Below, one piece after another: positions 1-51,525 of a stretch of DNA of 64,000 nucleotides. The stretch covers positions 2,328,962 to 2,392,961 of the forward strand of contig OZ260106.1 in NCBI GenBank assembly GCA_965284645.1. Reading direction: 5' to 3'. This DNA is from an uncultured Bacteroidia bacterium (GTDB lineage Bacteria > Bacteroidota > Bacteroidia > JAIBAJ01). Below the pieces are notes generated by a model. The model saw nothing but the letters and a program-made list of their open reading frames with translations, was not told the DNA's origin and did no database searches. Positions within the stretch are counted from its first letter, which is position 1. Every line of letters starts with the position of its first letter. The translations under genes and the position numbers were made by a program.

Positions 1-90
1 CTGCAAGTCCTCGGTATGCTCCGTGCCTACGCATCCCTGTGGGCTTTACGCTTCTATCCTTGCCCGATACCTGTTTACCTGGGTTTGGGT
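1..90 (-). repeat. Family-1 structured intergenic repeat, copy A (truncated by window start, reverse orientation)
   Basis: Near-identical to 39185-39283 and to the reverse complement of 18830-18900 (core 'gggcaaggatagag...cccacagggatgcgtaggcacggagca...ccgaggact'). Confidence 0.8.
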
Positions 91-320: not shown

Positions 321-483
321 GTGTCGGGCAAGGATAGAGCGTGATACCCCGCAAGCTTGCAGCCCCCGGGCATTTTCGGGGGCTGCAAGCTGAGGAGTAT
401 TAGCGAAAGCCTGACCCAACCGCCCTGGTAAATGGTTTATTCAAACGCAAATGGTTTTTGGCGGTTGGGGGCCCGCCAAATCT
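321..483 (+). repeat. Family-1 repeat, copy B (variant internal segment, conserved ends and 3' hairpin)
   Basis: 5' 'gggcaaggatagag' and 3' 'agcgaaagcctgacccaaccgccc...tttttggcggttgggggcccgccaaa' are shared with the other copies; the middle is replaced by a different perfect hairpin 'gcagcccccgggcattttcgggggctgc'. Confidence 0.75.
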
Positions 484-581: not shown

Positions 582-1703
582 TTAATCTGCTTTGTTTTTC
601 AGTTCCATCAGAAGGGTGTAAGCGGATTGAATGACAATTGTTTCTTTTTCCAAGGATGCTCCATTTTTAATTTCAACCCATTTCCCTTCTTTTTCGCCAA
701 TCTCTACAGGCACTAGAACAAAATTGTTATTTCGCTTAACAAATACACAGTTTCGCCCGTCAAAAAACAATACAGATTCCTCGGGTAATGCTAAACTTTG
801 CATGTCCTTTAATTGAATATCTGCATTCATATACATCCCTGGTAGTAGACTTTTGTCATAGTTTTCAAAATGGCAATGAACCTCAGCTGTGCGGTCTTCG
901 GCAATATCTTGGCTGATAAGAATTATTTCACATAAATATTTTTTGTTTGGATTGGAATTCGTGTAGGCCATTAACTTTTGACCAATTTCAAGTTGAATTA
1001 AATCTTTCTCAAAAACCTTCAAATTGAGGTGTATATCATTGGGGTTTACCAACTCAAATAGTACGTCCGATGGGTTAACATATTTACCGATGTTCACATT
1101 AACTTTAGAAACAAACCCATCAAATGGCGCTTTAATCGTAATACTTTTTGAAATATTTTGCTCTGATAGTTTTTCTGGATCAATCGCAATTAAACGTAGT
1201 TTTTGCTCCAGTGCACTTAAATTGATTTTTAAACTTAGGTAGTCGGCTTTTGCTTGTTGAAAAACCTTGTCGCTGCTAGCTTTGCTTTGATTCAGCTCAA
1301 GTTGGCGTTTGTATTCTTTTTCAGCCATTTCTATTCTTGCTTGGGTAATTAAATAGTCCTGCTGAAGCTGAATGTATTGTTGATCCTCCAATACGGCAAT
1401 CACATCGCCTTTGGCTAAATGCATTCCGGGAAGTAGTTTGGTGGATTTTAAATACCCACCTAACGGTGTACTTACCGAAAGGAGGTTTTGCGGCGGAACA
1501 TCGATTTTTCCATTTACTTTAAGGGTGCTTGATAATTGTCGTTTTTCAATTTTACCCAAAGTGATTTTTGATTCCTGAATTTGCTTCTCGTTTAAAACTA
1601 AGATGGAATCATTTTCGCTTGTTGCTTGAGTTTGGGTTTCGGTATTAGGTGATTGGCAAGCCTGAAGAAAAAGCAGGGCCAAAAGTATATAGCTGTAATG
1701 CAT
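582..1703 (-). CDS. Efflux RND periplasmic adaptor (HlyD/CzcB-type membrane fusion protein), lipoprotein
   Basis: 373 aa with an N-terminal lipobox ('LLALLFLQAC'), coiled-coil and beta-barrel MFP layout. Start overlaps the stop of the upstream RND gene. Confidence 0.85.
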   Translation of the reverse strand: MHYSYILLALLFLQACQSPNTETQTQATSENDSILVLNEKQIQESKITLGKIEKRQLSSTLKVNGKIDVPPQNLLSVSTPLGGYLKSTKLLPGMHLAKGDVIAVLEDQQYIQLQQDYLITQARIEMAEKEYKRQLELNQSKASSDKVFQQAKADYLSLKINLSALEQKLRLIAIDPEKLSEQNISKSITIKAPFDGFVSKVNVNIGKYVNPSDVLFELVNPNDIHLNLKVFEKDLIQLEIGQKLMAYTNSNPNKKYLCEIILISQDIAEDRTAEVHCHFENYDKSLLPGMYMNADIQLKDMQSLALPEESVLFFDGRNCVFVKRNNNFVLVPVEIGEKEGKWVEIKNGASLEKETIVIQSAYTLLMELKNKAD

Positions 1704-6039: not shown

Positions 6040-6295
6040 GACATAAAGTTTTAAAAGTGAGCAATAGCCCTAGTAAATTCAATAAGGCAAGGAGTGGTTT
6101 ACTCTAAGGCAAAAGATGATTTTTATCCGAACAGCTTGATTTAGTTGAGTTTACCTCACCCTAATGAAATTTAGGATAGAAATTGTAGGGCTTTTTTTCG
6201 GTTTAACAACCAAGGCAAGAGGCCAACAGTGAAAAGTTTTATCCTAGTTGCAATCGAATGAAAGCAAAGGAATAAATAGTCCAATTATTCCACTT

Positions 6296-9490: not shown

Positions 9491-9635
9491 CAGAACAGTT
9501 ACAAACGTAAATCAATGGATGCAAAGAAACAGGTTAGTTTTGAATAAAAGAGGTTTAGTCGCTATTCATCCGGTTTCAGCTTTCTAGGAAGGTTAATTTC
9601 TGTTGTGAATAAACTTTTGAAACAAACCCAGATTA

Positions 9636-9773
9636 CGCATTAGAAATACATAAACGATTAACCAGTTGTAAATCAATTTGTATGGCCAAATTGATAACAA
9701 CTGCTAAATCGGGGTAAACCCAACTAAATCAAGTAGTTCGGTTTAGTAAATCCTCCTATTGATTAATTTGGGA
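9636..9773 (+). repeat. Family-2 repeat, full copy (two imperfect hairpins)
   Basis: Hairpin 1 'cagttgtaaatcaattt/aaattgataacaactg'. Hairpin 2 'cccaactaaatcaag...ctattgattaatttggg'. Matches 35867-35993. Confidence 0.75.
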
Positions 9774-9804
9774 TAAAAAAAACCGGGACAATAACTTATC
9801 CCGG
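9774..9804 (-). terminator. Rho-independent terminator candidate for the minus-strand operon ending at 10038
   Basis: GC stem 'ccggga-caataactt-atcccgg' followed on the minus-strand RNA by a U-run (plus strand 'aaaaaaaa' at 9774-9782). Confidence 0.5.
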
Positions 9805-12829: not shown

Positions 12830-13000
12830 TTATTTGGTGGGCCCCCTCCGCCCATTTACCTTTGGATATATTTTACCATTCTACCTGGGGCGTTCGGGTC
12901 AGGCTTTCGGCGGTAGTCCTCGGTCCGCTTCGTTGCCCTACGCGTCCCTGTGGGCTACACTGCCTCTATCCTTGCCCTGGGCCGTTGTACCTGGCTTTGG
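12830..13000 (-). repeat. Family-1 repeat, copy C (reverse orientation, divergent variant)
   Basis: Reverse complement aligns to copies D/F/G with clustered substitutions in the middle segment. 3' hairpin 'aaatgggcggagggggcccaccaaa'. Confidence 0.8.
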
Positions 13001-18684: not shown

Positions 18685-18829
18685 ATCGGCGCGAAGATAA
18701 TAAACTTAACCCCAAAATAGTGAAGTGCCAGGAGGAGCTATTATGCTTCAGTTGTTTTTATTCACCCCATCTACCATTTTTGGATAAATCTTCACTGGTT
18801 TTATTTCACCAAATACTAGATCGGAGGTG

Positions 18830-18985
18830 TCCGGGCAAGGATAGAGGCAGTCTAGCCCACAGGGATGCGGAGGCACGGAGCAGACCGAGGACTAGCGCCG
18901 AAAGCCTGACCCAATCGCCCTTGCAGACTATTTTGTTTTCAGTAGACAGTGGTTTTGGCGATTGGGGGCCCGCCACATAAAAAAA
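18830..18985 (+). repeat. Family-1 repeat, copy D (forward)
   Basis: Core plus 3' hairpin 'ttttggcgattgggggcccgccaca' plus A-run. Lies in the divergent intergenic region. Confidence 0.85.
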
Positions 18986-19020
18986 GAAAGCATAAATGGG
19001 AAAAGCTAATAAATTGTGAA

Positions 19021-19830
19021 ATGATAAGGGATTTTCTGTTCAAAACCTATTTTTGTGCTGTGGAAAAAACAGTACCGCTCAATTTTAAAGTGTATGGCGA
19101 ATCAGGGCCTGCCTTGGTTATCGTTCATGGTTTGTTTGGCTCGTTGGACAATTGGGCAAGCTTAGCAAAAAGATTTTCTAATGATTTTCAAGTATTTACC
19201 GTCGATCAACGCAACCATGGATTGAGCCCGCATACCGACGATTTTTCCATTGAATTGCTGGCCGAGGATTTAAAGGCATTTTTGGACGACCGGAATTTAA
19301 AAAAAGTGAATCTGATAGGGCATTCGCTGGGAGGGAAAACGGGCATGCACCTGGCTATTGCCCATCCCGATCGGGTAGGAAAGTTGGTGGTGGCCGATAT
19401 TGCGCCAAAAGCGTATCCCCTGCATCATCAAGTTATTTTGGAAGCTTTGCATAGCTTGGATTTTGGCGAATTAAGCAGTAGGAAAGAGGCTGAACTTTTG
19501 ATGGGACAACGAATTCAGGAACCGTCTACCTTGCAGTTTCTGTTGAAAAACCTCACTTGGAAAGAAGAGGGGAAATTGGCCTGGAAATTCAATCTCAAAA
19601 GTTTAACCCAACATATTCAGGAAGTGGGAAAGCTCCAGGAAGGCATTTGCACCGTGGAAACGCTTTTTTTGAGAGGCGACCGATCGGGTTATATCCATGA
19701 AAGCGATTACCAAAGCATCTACCAGCAATTCCCATTTTCCGAAATTCATACCTTATCCAATTGCGGTCATTGGTTACATGCCGAACAACCTGAATTGTTT
19801 TATCAGGAGGTGAGTAAGTTTTTTGCTTAA
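19021..19830 (+). CDS. Alpha/beta-fold hydrolase (esterase/lipase-like)
   Basis: Nucleophile elbow 'GHSLGG'; His in 'CGHWLH'. The track's GTG start at 18949 lies in repeat D; first ATG is at 19021. Confidence 0.8.
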   Translation: MIRDFLFKTYFCAVEKTVPLNFKVYGESGPALVIVHGLFGSLDNWASLAKRFSNDFQVFTVDQRNHGLSPHTDDFSIELLAEDLKAFLDDRNLKKVNLIGHSLGGKTGMHLAIAHPDRVGKLVVADIAPKAYPLHHQVILEALHSLDFGELSSRKEAELLMGQRIQEPSTLQFLLKNLTWKEEGKLAWKFNLKSLTQHIQEVGKLQEGICTVETLFLRGDRSGYIHESDYQSIYQQFPFSEIHTLSNCGHWLHAEQPELFYQEVSKFFA

Positions 19831-23799: not shown

Positions 23800-23984
23800 A
23801 AAACAGTGTATTAATCGTTTGATTTATAATTCTTTGGTTTGTAAATATAGTAAAAGAATGCTTGCCAAAAAGGTTGAAATGGAAATGGGGGGGAGAGAAG
23901 GTGTTTCATTTTTAGGCGTGCCCCCTTTCGCCCTAAACCATTTGCTCGTAATTTAAACATTTTACAAAGGGCTTCAGGGTCGGG

Positions 23985-24085
23985 CTATACACTGCAAGTC
24001 CTCGCGCCCGTTCGCTTTCGCTCCGTTCAGCTGTGGGCTTTCCGTTCCTATCCCTGCCCGGAAACCTCCGAACCTGGCAGTCTGC
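23985..24085 (-). repeat. Family-1 repeat, degenerate copy E (reverse), followed by a degenerate family-2 5' module
   Basis: 'ctgcaagtcctcg...ctgtgggctttcc...ctatccctgcccg' parallels copy A. 24086-24110 'ttgaaatcaattt' resembles the family-2 start. Confidence 0.5.
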
Positions 24086-35866: not shown

Positions 35867-35993
35867 AACCAGTTGTAAATCAATTTATTTTTCCAAATGG
35901 ATAACAATTGCTATCCCTAAATTTCTTCGGGAGGGGTAAACCCAACTAAATCAAGTAGTTCGGATTATTAAATCCTCCTATTGATTAATTTGG
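35867..35993 (+). repeat. Family-2 repeat copy, immediately upstream of family-1 copy F
   Basis: Aligns to 9661-9773. Confidence 0.75.
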
Positions 35994-36021
35994 GTTTAAC
36001 CAACACCCAGGTTCGGAGGTT

Positions 36022-36180
36022 CTCGGGCAAGGATAGAGGCAGTCTAGCCCACAGGGATGCGTAGGCACGGAGCAGACCGAGGACTAGCGCCGAAAGCCTG
36101 ACCCGAACGCCCCTTGTACCCCGGTTTATTTTGGCACCGCTGTTTTTGGGCGGAGGGGGCACGCCAAATAAAAAAAAAAA
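36022..36180 (+). repeat. Family-1 repeat, copy F (forward)
   Basis: Core identical to D/G; 3' hairpin 'tttttgggcggagggggcacgccaaa' plus A12. Confidence 0.85.
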
Positions 36181-36321
36181 TTGAAAATAGCCTTTAAACA
36201 AGGAACGAAAAAAGTATAATAAATTTTCATTTCCATTGTAGATTCTTTGTGGTGAAATCAGATAAATTCTATCTTTGAAAAGGTGGAAAAGCAAAGGAAA
36301 ATAGCCAAGTGTAAGCTTTTG

Positions 36322-39073: not shown

Positions 39074-39109
39074 GTTTTGAAAATGTTTTTTTGTCTGTAA
39101 ATGGGTGTT

Positions 39110-39283
39110 TTTTATTTGGCGGGCCCCCAACCGCCAAAACCAGTTTAACCTTTGAATTTTTCAGTCTGCAAGGGCGGTTGGGTCAGGCTTTCGGCGCTAG
39201 TCCTCGGTCTGCTCCGTGCCTACGCATCCCTGTGGGCTAGACTGCCTCTATCCTTGCCCGAAACCGAAGTACCTGGCTTTTGT
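39110..39283 (-). repeat. Family-1 repeat, copy G (reverse)
   Basis: Reverse complement is more than 95% identical to D/F across the core; 5' hairpin 'tttggcgggcccccaaccgccaaaa'. Confidence 0.85.
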
Positions 39284-47646: not shown

Positions 47647-50600
47647 TTAATCAGCTTTTGAAACCTTATAATTAATTTGAACATCTTTAAGGCGATAGGT
47701 TGAATTAAATAATGCTGAAGTAACAGAAGGAATTGAAACGACAACATAATAAGAAAAACTGGCATTGTTTATAGTTTCACCGGTTGGCGCAAGCGTTAAT
47801 GCTTGAACTCCAGAACTTACGGAAGAGGTAGCAGAGGCAATAACTGTTGGTGCCACACCATTTGAATTATAAGGCATCTTCTCGAAAGAAACACTAATAT
47901 TCGAATTGCCTAAATCATACACATTAAAGGTTAAATTTGTTATGGATGCTCCATCAGGCAATCGTACAGGAGCTACTGCTCGTCTAAAAGATGAAGCTGT
48001 AATTGATCCCGAAAAGTATAAATAGGGTTCAGAGATAGTGCTAAACAAGTAATTATACATTTCTACGCCATCATTGGTGGGAATATCACCTCCAACCCTT
48101 TTTACGAAGTCATAAGGATTTAAAGTTAAATACCTTGTTTGTACTGTTGTATAGCTATATTCACCTCCTGTTTTAAAACCTTGGCTTCCTGTTATTGTAT
48201 TTGTACCTAAAACATCTCCTTCTACATATAATTTATAAGAAGCTTCGCTTGTTCCAATTGAAACATTCCCATTGAACAATGCATTTCCGCCATTGACATG
48301 CAATTTGGTTAAAGGTGCAGTGGTTCCAATTCCAACATTGCCAGCTGGTGAAATAGTTAACCTTGGTGTTGCTTGAATGGTAAGGTGAAGCGCTCCAGCT
48401 GTATTTCCTGCACCAGTTCCGAAGTCAATATCTCTTGGAGAAACTGAAGAAGCAAAGGAACCTAAATATCCATTATACACACCATCTTCGAATAAACCAA
48501 TATAGCCATTTGTCCCCATGTCAAAAATGGAAGTTAAAGCTGTGGAAGATTTTACATGAAGTTTTGCGGAAGTAGTCGTTGTGCCTATTCCGATATTGGT
48601 GCCATTGTCATAAATATTACTATCCTCTAATTTAAATGCAGTGGAATTCCATCTTGGTACATACTTATTGGATAACGCACCTACACGTGGATCCGTTTCA
48701 CCATTTGAAATTGCTGCTGATAGGCTAATCCATTCAGGACGGCTATTCAGTGAATTCCATCCCATGTAATAATCTGCTGCACCGTTCGTGCCATTAAGTG
48801 TAATATCTCCTGAAATGCTCGCTCCAGAGGCAACTTTAAAACTACCATTTACATCTAATCTGGCTTGAGGAAATGTAGTTCCAACACCAACATTAGTGCC
48901 ATCATAATACATGGAGGTATTGCCAAGTTCGCCTGCATCATCAAACCAAAAAGGCATCATACCGTCTGTAAGTGAACCAACGCGTGGATCGGCTTCATCA
49001 CTCCATTTTAAATATCCATTTGCATCGGCACGTAAAATTTGGTCTGTTGCACCGTAACCATTGGACGTTACAATAACCGAACTATTTAATATTGTTTCTG
49101 AATTATCCGCAAATTTTATTTTTCCATATTGAGGACCTAATTCTACATCATAATAGGTTGGTGTTCCATTCACTCCTACCAATGTGTTTCCAGAAGGACC
49201 TTGAATTACTGTTATAGAATTATCAATGACCCATTGAGAACCATCCCAATGAGGCGTTTGTCCGTTGGCGGTTCCATTTGCAAAAGAGCCTGTTGCACCA
49301 GTTGCGCCAGTGGCTCCAGTTGCACCAGTCGAACCAGCAGCACCTGTTGCACCAGTAGCTCCATTCGTTCCGTTTGTGCCAGCTGTACCAGTTGCACCTG
49401 TAGCTCCAGTTGCACCAGTTGCGCCATTCGTACCGTTTGTGCCAGCTGTACCAGTTGCACCTGTAGCTCCAGTTGCACCTGTTGCGCCATTCGTACCGTT
49501 TGTGCCAGCTGCACCAGTTGCACCTGTAGCTCCAGTTGCACCAGTTGCGCCATTAGTACCGTTTGTGCCAGCTGTACCAGTTGCACCTGTAGCACCTGTA
49601 GCTCCATTGGAACCATTCGTACCAGCAGCACCTGTTGCGCCAGTTGGGCCTGTTGCACCGGTAGCTCCATTAGTTCCGTTTGTGCCAGCTGCACCTGTGG
49701 CACCTGTTGGGCCTGTAGCACCAGTAGCTCCATTTGTACCGTTTGTGCCAGCTGTACCAGTTGCACCTGTAGCTCCAGTTGCACCTGTTGCTCCATTAGT
49801 ACCGTTTGTGCCAGCTGCACCTGTTGCACCTGTAGCACCTGTTGCACCTGTTGCACCTGTAGCACCTGTAGCTCCATTAGTACCGTTTATGCCTGCTGTA
49901 CCAGTAGCACCTGTAGCACCAGTTGCACCAGTTGCACCAGTTGCTCCATTGGTACCGTTTGTACCAGCCGCACCTGTAGCACCTGTAGCACCAGTTGCGC
50001 CATTGGTACCGTTTGTACCTGCTGCACCTGTAGCACCTGTAGCACCTGTAGCACCTGTAGCACCAGTTGCTCCATTGGTACCGTTTGTACCAGCCGCACC
50101 TGTAACACCTGTAGCACCTGTAGCACCAGTTGCTCCATTAGTGCCGTTTGTGCCAGCTGCACCAGTAGCACCTGTTGCACCAGTTGCTCCATTGGTACCG
50201 TTTGTACCAGCCGCACCTGTAGCACCTGTAGCACCAGTTGCTCCATTGGTACCGTTTGTACCAGCCGCACCTGTAGCACCTGTAGCACCAGTTGCTCCAT
50301 TAGTGCCGTTTGTGCCAGCTGCACCTGTAGCACCTGTAGCACCTGTAGCACCAGTTGCTCCATTGGTACCGTTTGTACCAGCAGCACCTGTAGCACCTGT
50401 AGCACCTGTTGCTCCATTGGTACCGTTTGTACCAGCCGCACCTGTAGCACCTGTAGCACCTGTAGCACCAGTTGCTCCATTGGTACCGTTTGTACCAGCC
50501 GCACCTGTAACACCTGTAGCACCTGTAGCACCAGTTGCTCCATTGGTACCGTTTGTACCAGCCGGACCTGTAACACCTGTAGCACCTGTAGCACCAGTTG

Positions 50601-51525
50601 CTCCATTAGTGCCGTTTGTGCCAGCTGCACCTGTTGCACCCGTAGCACCTGTTAATCCTGTTAATCCTGTTGGCCCCGTTGCGCCCGCAGCACCATTGGC
50701 TCCAGTAGCACCTGTTAATCCTGTTGGACCTGTTGCACCCGCAGCACCATTGGCCCCGGTAGCACCTGTTAATCCTGTTGGGCCTGTTGCCCCCGCAGCA
50801 CCATTGGCCCCAGTAGCACCTGTTAATCCTGTTGGCCCTGTTGCACCCGCAGCACCATTGGCGCCTGTTGCACCTGTTAATCCTGTTGGCCCCGTTGCAC
50901 CAGCAGCACCATTGGCGCCTGTTGCACCTGTAAGTCCGGTTGGTCCTGTTACACCATTAGCACCAGTTGCACCTGTTAATCCTGTTGGACCGGTTACTCC
51001 ATCGGCACCAGTTGCACCTGTTAATCCAGTTGGACCTGTAATACCATCAGCCCCAGTTGCCCCAGTTGCCCCAGGGTTTCCTGGATTTCCAGAATTAACA
51101 GAATATAAAGCAAAAGGAACAGATAATAATTCGGTTGTTCCTACTGTTTGAAAGTTAGTTCCACCAGTTGCATCCGCCTCAACTTCTACATAAATATCTG
51201 TACTTCCCCAAGAAATACTATTGTAGTTGCCTGAAACAGGGCTACCATTTCCAATTTTTACATTAAAAAGTCCCACGTTGTTGGTAGCAGTGCTTTGGGT
51301 TTCTTGATAAATGACTGTTCCTACTGGCGAAGCTTGGCGTAGGCTAATACGCAAGTTTACAGCTTGGTTTTGCTGAACTATACCGGCATTATTTCTAAGA
51401 ACTCCTTGGTAACTGATAAACCTGGACTGTGAAAATCCATAGAATGCCAAGCATACCGTAAAAACGAGGGTGGAAAGGACTCTTTTCATGGTTAGGCTAT
51501 GTGTAGTAAGTATATTCATGATCAT
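47647..51525 (-). CDS. Collagen-like (Gly-X-Y) triple-helix repeat surface protein with tail-fibre-like C-terminal region
   Basis: Signal peptide, then about 630 aa of uninterrupted GXY triplets ('GATGATGATGAAGTNGTN' units), then a C-terminal region with three 'N(V/I)G(V/I)GTT.P...L.V' motifs. The ATG overlaps the stop of the upstream gene (ATGA). Confidence 0.8.
49215..51110. repeat. Tandem 9-bp/54-bp DNA repeats encoding the collagen-like region
   Basis: Near-perfect reiteration of 'ggtgctacaggtgctaca...ggaacaaacggtaccaat' units over about 1.9 kb. The repeats produce long spurious ORFs in other frames on both strands. Confidence 0.9.

Follow-up and report, generated by a model that had tools for sequence, protein, structure and literature searches.

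What is the structured repeat that recurs between the genes of a 64,000-nucleotide (nt) stretch of DNA from an uncultured Bacteroidia bacterium (GenBank assembly GCA_965284645.1, contig OZ260106.1, positions 2,328,962 to 2,392,961 of the forward strand; this whole stretch is hereafter called the window), and does it act on the genes beside it? An earlier note, made from the sequence alone, had flagged the copy at 18830-18985 as one of seven copies of a dispersed element, similar either to a miniature inverted-repeat transposable element (MITE) or repetitive extragenic palindromic (REP) sequence or to a multi-copy small RNA (sRNA) family. Our analysis indicates that these copies very probably constitute a divergent subfamily of the Flavo-1 RNA motif, that is, a known family in a variant that scores below its threshold. 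Flavo-1 itself is known from Bacteroidota as a structured element present in multiple copies (Weinberg et al. 2010, Genome Biol 11:R31; Rfam RF01705). Both Rfam and Weinberg et al. class it as 'Gene; sRNA' and likely RNA, and the entry in the 2010 table reads 'cis-reg: n'.

Identity with Flavo-1

Rfam searches at gathering thresholds give no match to the window copies. When a short-form copy is scanned permissively, Flavo-1 is found at 34.7 bits (E 4.5e-6 in a small search), over the full model and on the same strand. Ten further copies also match at full length: all 11 alignments run from position 1 to position 76 of the 76-position model on the same strand, with scores of 29.0-37.1 bits. The Flavo-1 gathering score of 42 bits is reached by no copy; the best (L016) scores 37.1 bits, and the best in the window (23974-24062) scores 32.5 bits. 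The five window copies that we designate type A have no Rfam Flavo-1 match at E<=1 (two of these, scanned alone, have none at E<=10); compared to the Rfam model, they show a bulged P2a helix, a GAAAG loop and a P1 helix consisting of CGGGC/GCCCG. A cmsearch against Rfam, which the earlier note had proposed as a check, was thus decisive, and worked only at a permissive threshold with the right subtype.

The assignment to a divergent Flavo-1 subfamily follows from these full-length Rfam matches together with an identical block architecture. One subtype of the 2010 seed (supplementary file 151), with members in Flavobacterium johnsoniae, Flavobacterium psychrophilum, Gramella forsetii and on two Bacteroides plasmids, reads GCGUGA-GGGAUAG-AAGUGGAAAG-CCC-ACAG-...-C-GAGGAC-UUGUAAC-GGAUAG-CCC-GA-CCCGGA, and the order of its blocks is that of the window family. 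Using the seed blocks as a test (GGGAU.G - helix - CCC.CAG - hairpin - GAGGAC - helix -.A.AGCCCGACC), 38 of 38 full-length copies parse. Helices P2, P2a, P2b and P3 covary, and the cmscan alignments keep the published pairing register. The family therefore resembles Flavo-1 in its invariant blocks and their order (GGGAUAG ... AGCGGAAAG-CCC-ACAG ... GAGGAC-UUG.A.CG.AUAGCCCGACC), in its hairpin arm and the covariation of that arm, in its restriction to Bacteroidota, in its multiple copies and in its independence of particular genes and orientations.

Predicted fold: a three-way junction

The published Flavo-1 structure is one long hairpin (the P2-P3 arm of our nomenclature), with the 5' GCGUGA unpaired and the alignment ending just inside the helix that we call P4 (Weinberg et al. 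2010). In contrast to that structure, the P2-P3 hairpin is enclosed by P1 and P4 in the present family, and also in each of the 12 canonical sequences of that subtype that could be read. The constant unit is approximately 93-100 nt in short forms and approximately 140-155 nt in the long forms of the window. P1 is a 5-base pair (bp) closing helix that joins the two ends of the element and is followed by a single A. The long arm then comprises P2 (RGG/CCY), an internal loop (AUAG / (G)AA(U)AG), P2a, P2b, and the blocks CCC-RCAG ... (C)GAGGA around a variable P3. After the arm comes GA, and then P4, beginning at GA-CC: in short forms this is a 3-bp CCC/GGG helix with a tri- or tetraloop, and in the long forms of the window it is a helix of approximately 10 bp with an AT-rich distal insert (approximately 40 nt). 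Between P4 and the P1 3' strand there is a single nucleotide, and CC comes after that strand. The flagged copy (+ strand) is divided as follows, with segment boundaries taken from an anchor parse and helices backed by covariation:

18832-18836, +: P1 5' strand
18837, +: single A
18838-18840, +: P2 5' strand
18841-18844, +: loop AUAG
18845-18855, +: P2a/P2b 5' strand
18856-18858, +: CCC
18859-18862, +: ACAG
18863-18886, +: P3 hairpin
18887-18891, +: GAGGA
18892-18899, +: P2b/P2a 3' strand
18900-18904, +: loop GAAAG
18905-18907, +: P2 3' strand
18908-18909, +: GA
18910-18966, +: P4 hairpin
18967, +: G
18968-18972, +: P1 3' strand
18973-18974, +: CC

Comparison of the copies shows this predicted three-way junction of P1, the P2-P3 arm and P4. 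Variation is concentrated in two segments, each of which is a different hairpin in different copies, and the helices covary, with no change from Cytophagales to Flavobacteriales in the purine-rich blocks that stay unpaired. RNAalifold finds helices with many double-sided changes. In a model-guided alignment of 40 sequences, 78.6% of cells pair, as opposed to 31-50% with slid partners, and there are 132 double-sided changes versus 56 in shuffles. In automatic alignments, type A falls out of register with type B, and short forms with long ones; all 38 full copies were therefore also parsed by anchors. Canonical pairing with own versus permuted partners is then 89 versus 75% for P1, 73 versus 52% for P2a, 84 versus 60% for P2b, 71 versus 51% for P3 and 77 versus 61% for P4. 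At the level of single positions, pairs are swapped in both directions (AT18/TA18, GC17/CG14, CG13/GC10, CG26/GC7/GU2). RNAalifold had paired GG (columns 9-10) with CC in GACC; the covarying P1 and P4 supersede this.

The P1 pairs in our own set are GCGGC/GCCGC, CGGGC/GCCCG, CGGGU/ACCCG and GGGGC/GCCCU. The prediction of P1 and P4 was checked on the flank-containing 2010 alignment, in which 12 members of the GCGUGA/GGGAUAG subtype are readable. A P4 hairpin followed by a P1 3' strand occurs in all 12 of these independent canonical sequences, with full complementarity in 11 (the imperfect case is one GCGUU copy with CACGC); the pairs are GCGUG/CACGC, GCGUU/AACGC, GCAUU/AAUGC, GCGCA/UGCGC and GCACA/UGUGC, which brings the matched P1 strand types in our own set and canonical Flavo-1 to nine. 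The predicted three-way junction is confirmed as a structural extension of Flavo-1 on independent published sequences. Past the P1 3' strand, canonical Flavo-1 continues with CC(C)A and then an A/U-rich run.

This fold replaces most of the GC-rich stem-loop 'ttggcgg-ttgggggc-ccgccaa' that the earlier note had placed at the core of the repeat. The supposed stem-loop is for the most part a misparse of two 3' strands, those of P4 and P1: GGCGGTTGGG pairs with the upstream CCCAACCGCC in P4, and GCCCG pairs with the 5' CGGGC in P1. Among minimum free energy folds of the 3' region in 25 long forms, P4 is found in 16 and the earlier hairpin in two, and the strand that the latter would need is variable, covarying with the upstream P4 strand instead. 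The T-run on the 5' side and the A-run on the 3' side lie where the earlier note had put them; an intrinsic terminator, whichever strand is read, would need the opposite order. An intrinsic (bidirectional) terminator was rejected on this ground, and also since the hairpin is disfavoured relative to P4 and P1.

Non-canonical cells within the helices are more often purine.purine (52) than pyrimidine.pyrimidine (17), with tandem G.A/A.G in P3 and GA/AA/AG in P4 recurring. Together, this excess and the purine richness of the invariant loops favour folding of the strand in the present orientation (18830 on +).

Copies in the window

The limits of the element were defined as the first base of the P1 5' strand and the trailing CC. 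Seven copies are found in the window both by nhmmer (with the flagged copy as query) and by R1, a covariance model built from 20 members, in agreement with the number and approximate positions in the earlier note. Their R1 scores are 67.8-133 bits (E 1e-15 to 1e-32), the six complete copies scoring 108-133 bits, and an R1 search of the whole window reveals no eighth copy.

18832-18974, +: flagged copy, long form, type A, 143 nt (R1 126 bits, E 7e-31)
39118-39260, -: long form, type A (R1 132 bits; 98% identity to 18832-18929 over 98 nt)
36024-36165, +: long form, type A (R1 125 bits; P1 3' strand GCACG, so that the middle pair is a G.A mismatch)
12836-12978, -: long form, type A, between a response-regulator gene and queA (R1 110 bits)
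325-477, +: long form with a 37-nt near-perfect P3 hairpin (R1 108 bits; divergent doublet with copy 1-66)
23915-24060, -: long form, type B (R1 133 bits; Rfam Flavo-1 match at 23974-24062, the only one among the window copies)
1-66, -: copy cut by the window start, P1 5' strand at 62-66 (R1 67.8 bits, model positions 1-74)
18770-18831, +: 5' extension of approximately 60 nt, weakly conserved, in a subset of long forms and outside the constant core

Two of these copies had been described differently. The one reported as degenerate at 23985-24085 is in fact full length (133 bits, type B), and the one reported as a variant at 321-483 is indeed present on the + strand and is also full length, with a long perfect P3 hairpin. 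In some copies, including this one (window 345-395; also L029 and L037), a GC-rich hairpin with nearly perfect pairing, CCCC(C)G..(A/T-rich)..CGGGG(G), takes the place of P3; hairpins of this kind are similar to one another and may represent a small hairpin module nested in the P3 loop. The 5' extension follows the pattern ...ACC.A..CC(A/G)GG.AC.GGAGG..T upstream of P1. In long forms an A-rich 3' run starts a few bases past the trailing CC (for example, 18975-18986, 36166-36182 and 39106-39117), and its longest unbroken stretch of A ranges from A6 to A11 among otherwise similar copies. This run may belong to the element, come from slippage or reflect a preferred target.

Read along the window, the orientation of the seven copies alternates (- + - + - + -), and the 5' ends of the doublet 1-66 (-) / 325-477 (+) are 258 bp apart. 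The copies are confined to the first 39.3 kb; the remaining 24.7 kb (39300-64000) contain none, despite comparable intergenic space. Window G+C content is 39%, and sorting domains of the type IX secretion system (T9SS), a Bacteroidota feature, are encoded.

The density of seven copies per 64 kb given by the earlier note holds. The genome of F. psychrophilum is approximately 2.86 Mb in length and that of F. johnsoniae approximately 6.1 Mb. With genomes of about these sizes, one copy per 9 kb in the window compares with approximately one per 30 kb in F. psychrophilum and one per 170 kb in F. johnsoniae. The copies counted are those listed in the 2010 alignment, 96 and 35, respectively (Weinberg et al. 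2010). Long forms also depart from Flavo-1 in adding the approximately 40-nt AT-rich P4 insert, the 3' A-run and, in some copies, the approximately 60-nt 5' extension. As far as the literature consulted shows, the long form with a P4 insert, the A6-A11 3' run, the 5' extension, the divergent doublets and a density of one per 9 kb are not on record for Flavo-1. A literature search on Bacteroidota repeats and sRNAs likewise found no description of this element, and searches with sequence strings gave only chance primer matches.

Distribution beyond the window

Scans of a genome collection and of metagenomes, which give a lower bound on the taxonomic range, yield at least 33 further R1-supported copies from Cytophagales, Chitinophagales, Flavobacteriales and freshwater metagenomes. 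The genome-collection scan used a pattern of the invariant blocks, and its matches were then judged by R1. Among the genome matches listed, members are present in a Sediminibacterium metagenome-assembled genome (MAG), with five copies on one 95-kb contig, and in Lacihabitans, Chryseolinea, Cytophagales MAGs and Aquimarina; four pattern matches were due to chance and were rejected by R1. At least 18 more R1 matches come from the metagenome scan, on 15 contigs that are mostly from freshwater samples. A scan of viral contigs produced one chance match and nothing real. BLAST searches of plasmids and phages gave no match, at a sensitivity that is too low, since two members of the 2010 seed sit on Bacteroides plasmids.

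The QueA protein of the window is 100% identical to that of one JGI metagenome contig, L040, which is collinear with the window at 99.1% DNA identity. Exact-match look-ups of two window ORF products found no protein on record, even though L040 comes from the same species. Further relatives have QueA identities of 88, 86, 77 and 65%, and the nearest named Cytophagales/Chitinophagaceae only approximately 50%. Particular subtypes of the element recur in the Sediminibacterium MAG with 84-92% identity at non-syntenic sites. In L031, positions 1-25 (the 3' end of a minus-strand copy) are Illumina adapter (AGATCGGAAGAGCACACG...), making the apparent 3' end an assembly artefact.

Evolutionary behaviour

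The relative with 88% identical QueA has a copy (L037 555-726) at the locus that copy 12836-12978 occupies in the window, between the response-regulator gene and queA, and a copy in an AcrB/OEP spacer is apparently common to two Chryseolinea species (L014/L006). In these two apparently orthologous pairs, identity is 67% and 76% in the element but 40-55% in the flanks, which is what unrelated AT-rich DNA would show. The core blocks are near-identical, with change mostly in P3 and distal P4, and P2a is re-paired in a new register. Because a dead insertion would not decay in this way, either selection in place or gene conversion among paralogues is suggested; the latter is made plausible by three window paralogues that share 98% identity across cores of 90-98 nt.

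Copy 18832 is absent from the same intergenic region of the relative with 77% identical QueA, suggesting that copies are gained or lost on a genus-level timescale. In a second filled/empty comparison, via L019, synteny stops at the gene boundary. The target-site duplications that the earlier note had advised looking for at the ends are not found: the longest flanking direct repeat averages 3.8 nt, versus 4.0 nt in shuffled controls.

Gene context and transcription signals

All copies are intergenic, as the earlier note had stated, and its argument against a gene-specific leader is borne out by unrelated neighbours and arbitrary orientation. The adjacent genes encode an alpha/beta hydrolase, an MBL-fold protein, a two-component system, PhoD, an aldehyde dehydrogenase, Usp, SusE/amylase, AcrB/OEP and ACIII subunits, among others. 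A convergent gene is faced by 11 of the 20 copies for which the downstream gene can be called, and copies in co-directional gene pairs are sense in two cases and antisense in five. Some copies lie inside operons with gaps of 5-26 nt, antisense cases included (L009, L014), leaving no room for a dedicated promoter.

Upstream of the copies we find no conserved promoter and no TAnnTTTG-type box at a fixed distance, and a promoter in the 5' extension resembling those of extracytoplasmic function (ECF) sigma factors or sigma-A could not be substantiated. No U-tract lies 3' of any hairpin on either strand, and a terminator scan of the 35.7-39.7 kb stretch flagged nothing at its two copies. The 5' flank is pyrimidine-rich only; the 3' flank is the A-run, with no variable guide. 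No transposase, reverse transcriptase, integrase, TnpB/Cas12f, REP-associated tyrosine transposase (RAYT), ECF sigma factor or helix-turn-helix partner is encoded in the window or in the flanks of approximately 40 copies. GC skew is too noisy to define a replichore. In F. psychrophilum, Flavo-1 matches fall sense or antisense to transcribed regions without distinction, and many lie outside such regions (PMC9723704), in agreement with the orientations seen here.

Close pairs of copies are divergent in all three cases, with 5' ends 160-260 bp apart (probability approximately 0.016 under random orientation). Besides the doublet at the window start, these are:

L025 878-1032 (-) / 1191-1352 (+): divergent doublet; the spacer has 4.2 copies of a 21-nt tandem repeat, AAAATAGAAGTGAGAAAAGAG
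L030 940-1100 (-) / 1316-1403 (+): divergent doublet; spacer motifs similar to those of L025

Tandem repeats of 21 nt are thus present in the spacers of two of the three doublets.

The earlier note had also reported a spurious open reading frame (ORF) at each of four copies. Three are present, with TTG or GTG starts, and the fourth interval is not a multiple of three. Gene callers also run neighbouring genes into the element: the alpha/beta-hydrolase gene at 18949-19830 is called as 293 amino acids (aa) with a GTG start inside the element (relatives have 259-265 aa), the same call is made in L040 (9211-10092), and the response regulator is called as 268 aa in GCA_041443025.1 versus 226 aa in the window.

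Alternative explanations

The copies could instead be genes of a trans-acting sRNA family, or the RNA part of a ribonucleoprotein, having their own promoters (a bidirectional one shared by each doublet) and a junction that binds a protein or ligand. Although we consider this unlikely, it has several points in its favour: a complex fold of RNA type with invariant purine-rich loops, tandem G.A pairs and covarying helices; the sRNA classification of Flavo-1; cores conserved in place; and the divergence of all three close pairs, as in TwoAYGGAY RNAs. TwoAYGGAY (RF01731) is likewise a multi-copy motif (tens to hundreds) whose copy number varies between relatives, and in Pseudomonas it frequently forms divergent doublets approximately 250 bp apart, with short tandem repeats upstream of some (bioRxiv 10.64898/2026.09.22.753630). 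The present element shares with it the multi-copy structured nature, the divergent doublets and the tandem repeats in spacers, but its sequence and fold are unrelated (the TwoAYGGAY Rfam model does not match the copies even at permissive thresholds), and TwoAYGGAY is a motif of Pseudomonadota and Bacillota that occurs with REP arrays, which are not seen here. An sRNA gene family is difficult to reconcile with the lack of a conserved promoter upstream or a terminator after the element, with copies wedged 5-26 nt from genes within operons, with the many F. psychrophilum matches outside transcribed regions (PMC9723704) and with tens to approximately 100 copies per genome, which would be unusual for a trans-acting RNA. 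A non-autonomous single-stranded DNA transposon, whose fold would be the substrate of a trans-acting HUH/Y1 enzyme (IS200/IS605, REP-RAYT) or of another structure-recognising recombinase with no RNA involved, is improbable. The lack of target-site duplications, as in IS200/IS605 and REPINs, would suit it, as would the dispersed intergenic sites, the indifference to transcription direction, the many untranscribed copies, the presence or absence of copies between relatives and the REPIN-like inverted doublets. More generally, the family is similar to REP/REPIN-RAYT and enterobacterial repetitive intergenic consensus (ERIC) repeats, which are also dispersed between genes in both orientations and inside operons, without target-site duplication, and are vertically inherited and long-lived. 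A REP sequence evolves together with its RAYT and is not the same from one genus to the next, whereas the loops seen here are invariant over three orders. Against a REP identity, which the earlier note had entertained, REPs are imperfect palindromes of 20-40 nt with a GTAG/CGTC tag and are genus-specific; this element is no simple palindrome, being a multi-helix covarying junction found across orders. Moreover, no Y1, HUH or RAYT gene is present near the approximately 40 copies or in the window, the alternating orientations do not suggest a lagging-strand bias (on a replichore that is not definable), and orthologous copies are conserved instead of decaying. Neither TnpA nor TnpB nor IscB genes occur near the approximately 40 copies, as would be expected of IS200/IS605 elements or TnpB/IscB omega-RNAs.

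That the repeat is dispersed, structured and multi-copy was rightly seen in the earlier note; the MITE part of its proposal does not stand. A classical MITE, moved by cut-and-paste with terminal inverted repeats and target-site duplications, would likewise be small, non-coding, AT-flanked, intergenic and multi-copy, and P1 does pair the ends, yet this helix has only 5 bp and covaries, indicating selection for pairing and not for sequence. Given also the missing duplications and the covarying internal helices and invariant loops, structure under selection that would not be expected of a decaying MITE, we hold this explanation to be very improbable. Comparably remote is an identity with the 'hth-associated ncRNA' (noncoding RNA), or with the target site, of the Bacteroidetes dCas12f-sigmaE RNA-guided transcription systems. 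That ncRNA occurs at multiple Bacteroidetes loci upstream of two-component-system and transporter genes (PMC13472631), and two window copies precede two-component operons. It is, however, sense-oriented upstream of its targets while orientation here is arbitrary, and no hth, rpoE or dcas12f gene lies beside any copy or in the window. We attach least credence to a riboswitch or other 5' leader with the 3' hairpin as a terminator expression platform, which orientation and gene context already contradict. The junction does look aptamer-like, the 3' strand of P4 in long forms could alternatively pair with the tail (...GGCGG/CCGCC...), and four window copies lie upstream of same-strand genes; but 11 of 20 copies face a convergent gene, five of the seven in co-directional pairs are antisense, the downstream genes are mutually unrelated, no U-tract follows the hairpin, and the alternative hairpin lacks covariation, is the minimum free energy fold in only two of 25 long forms and is absent from short forms. 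Twister, hammerhead and hatchet ribozymes, integron attC sites, IS110 bridge RNA, retron ncRNA and UG27 arrays were rejected for want of motif or Rfam support. So was a tRNA-like or CCA-ending element: after CC most copies have A and many have U, and ARAGORN made no tRNA-like call on the copies.

Proposed mechanism

The best overall explanation, and in our judgement probably the right one, combines identity with Flavo-1, the three-way-junction anatomy and a repeat mechanism that is independent of orientation. Less firmly, and by analogy to REP, ERIC and TwoAYGGAY, we tentatively propose that the element does not control the adjacent gene and is a structured repeat independent of both orientation and locus. 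In such a mechanism the purine-rich strand would fold when single-stranded, most plausibly as RNA under read-through from a neighbouring transcript; RNA is preferred as the folding form because of the G.A-rich, RNA-like motifs. A factor conserved across Bacteroidota would recognise the fold via its invariant loops. Copies would spread rarely and without target-site duplication, and, once settled, would be kept by selection or by gene conversion among paralogues.

Several observations weigh against this explanation. In cleanly aligned helices (misaligned P4 columns removed), G.U and A.C cells number 6 and 4, which does not decide the strand. Many matches are untranscribed in F. psychrophilum, so that an RNA-level role cannot apply to every copy. 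No trans-acting partner was found, the window and the flanks containing ordinary genes only. Mobility is deduced from nothing more than the dispersal of copies and a single empty site in a distant relative; within the species no insertion polymorphism is seen, as L040 (99.1% identical) has both copies tested. The orthology of L014 and L006 is judged from an AcrB-like neighbour and short common sequence, not from alignable flanks. Finally, the divergent doublets could reflect outward transcription from a shared promoter, that is, RNA genes.

A more speculative extension of the proposed mechanism, which we think doubtful, is that the three-way junction is the recognition module of a Bacteroidota-wide, structure-dependent propagation system acting via a folded single-stranded RNA or DNA intermediate, or else a scattered aptamer serving as sensor or decoy. 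For propagation, a host- or element-encoded factor would bind the invariant purine-rich loops; such a system is so far undescribed. As an aptamer, the junction would instead bind some conserved protein or ligand, and its copies would act across the genome as sensors or decoys. If the propagation system were real, Flavo-1 would be a bacterial counterpart of replicators such as short interspersed nuclear elements or REPINs, with a complex tertiary fold.

Other features of the window

A second, unrelated intergenic repeat family of approximately 150 nt is present in the window and elsewhere:

9624-9777: copy in the window
35867-36000: copy in the window, upstream of the Flavo-1-like copy at 36024
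111-168: copy in the window, between the Flavo-1-like copies at 1-66 and 325-477
6125-6186: inverted copy in the window
L008 4446-4614 and L039 2224-2371: copies elsewhere

Two of its copies thus adjoin Flavo-1-like copies. This family shares 87-92% identity with sequences of the Sediminibacterium MAG and 77% at a syntenic site of the relative with 65% identical QueA, and has no Rfam match at E<=1.

A 1292-aa ORF at 47647-51525 (-) encodes a long collagen-like Gly-X-Y repeat (Pfam Collagen, E 1e-87) and accounts for the 9-nt periodic repeat that dominates the repeat-finder output. The gene next to it encodes a SprB-repeat protein with a T9SS sorting domain.

Significance

Few orphan RNA motifs in Rfam are more abundant than Flavo-1, for which no function has been proposed since 2010. 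Whole subfamilies escape the current Rfam model, meaning that the motif is under-annotated outside Flavobacteriaceae, and missed elements cause gene-calling errors in the form of spurious ORFs and N-terminal extensions into the element. For the GCGUGA/GGGAUAG subtype, the functional unit would be the closed three-way junction, which changes the constructs to be used for probing, pull-downs and ligand screens. With a density approximately three times that of the richest genome in the 2010 alignment, the present lineage is well suited to a search for a partner by phylogenetic profiling. The conservation of the core amid randomised flanks at apparently orthologous loci argues that the element is maintained in these genomes and is not junk.

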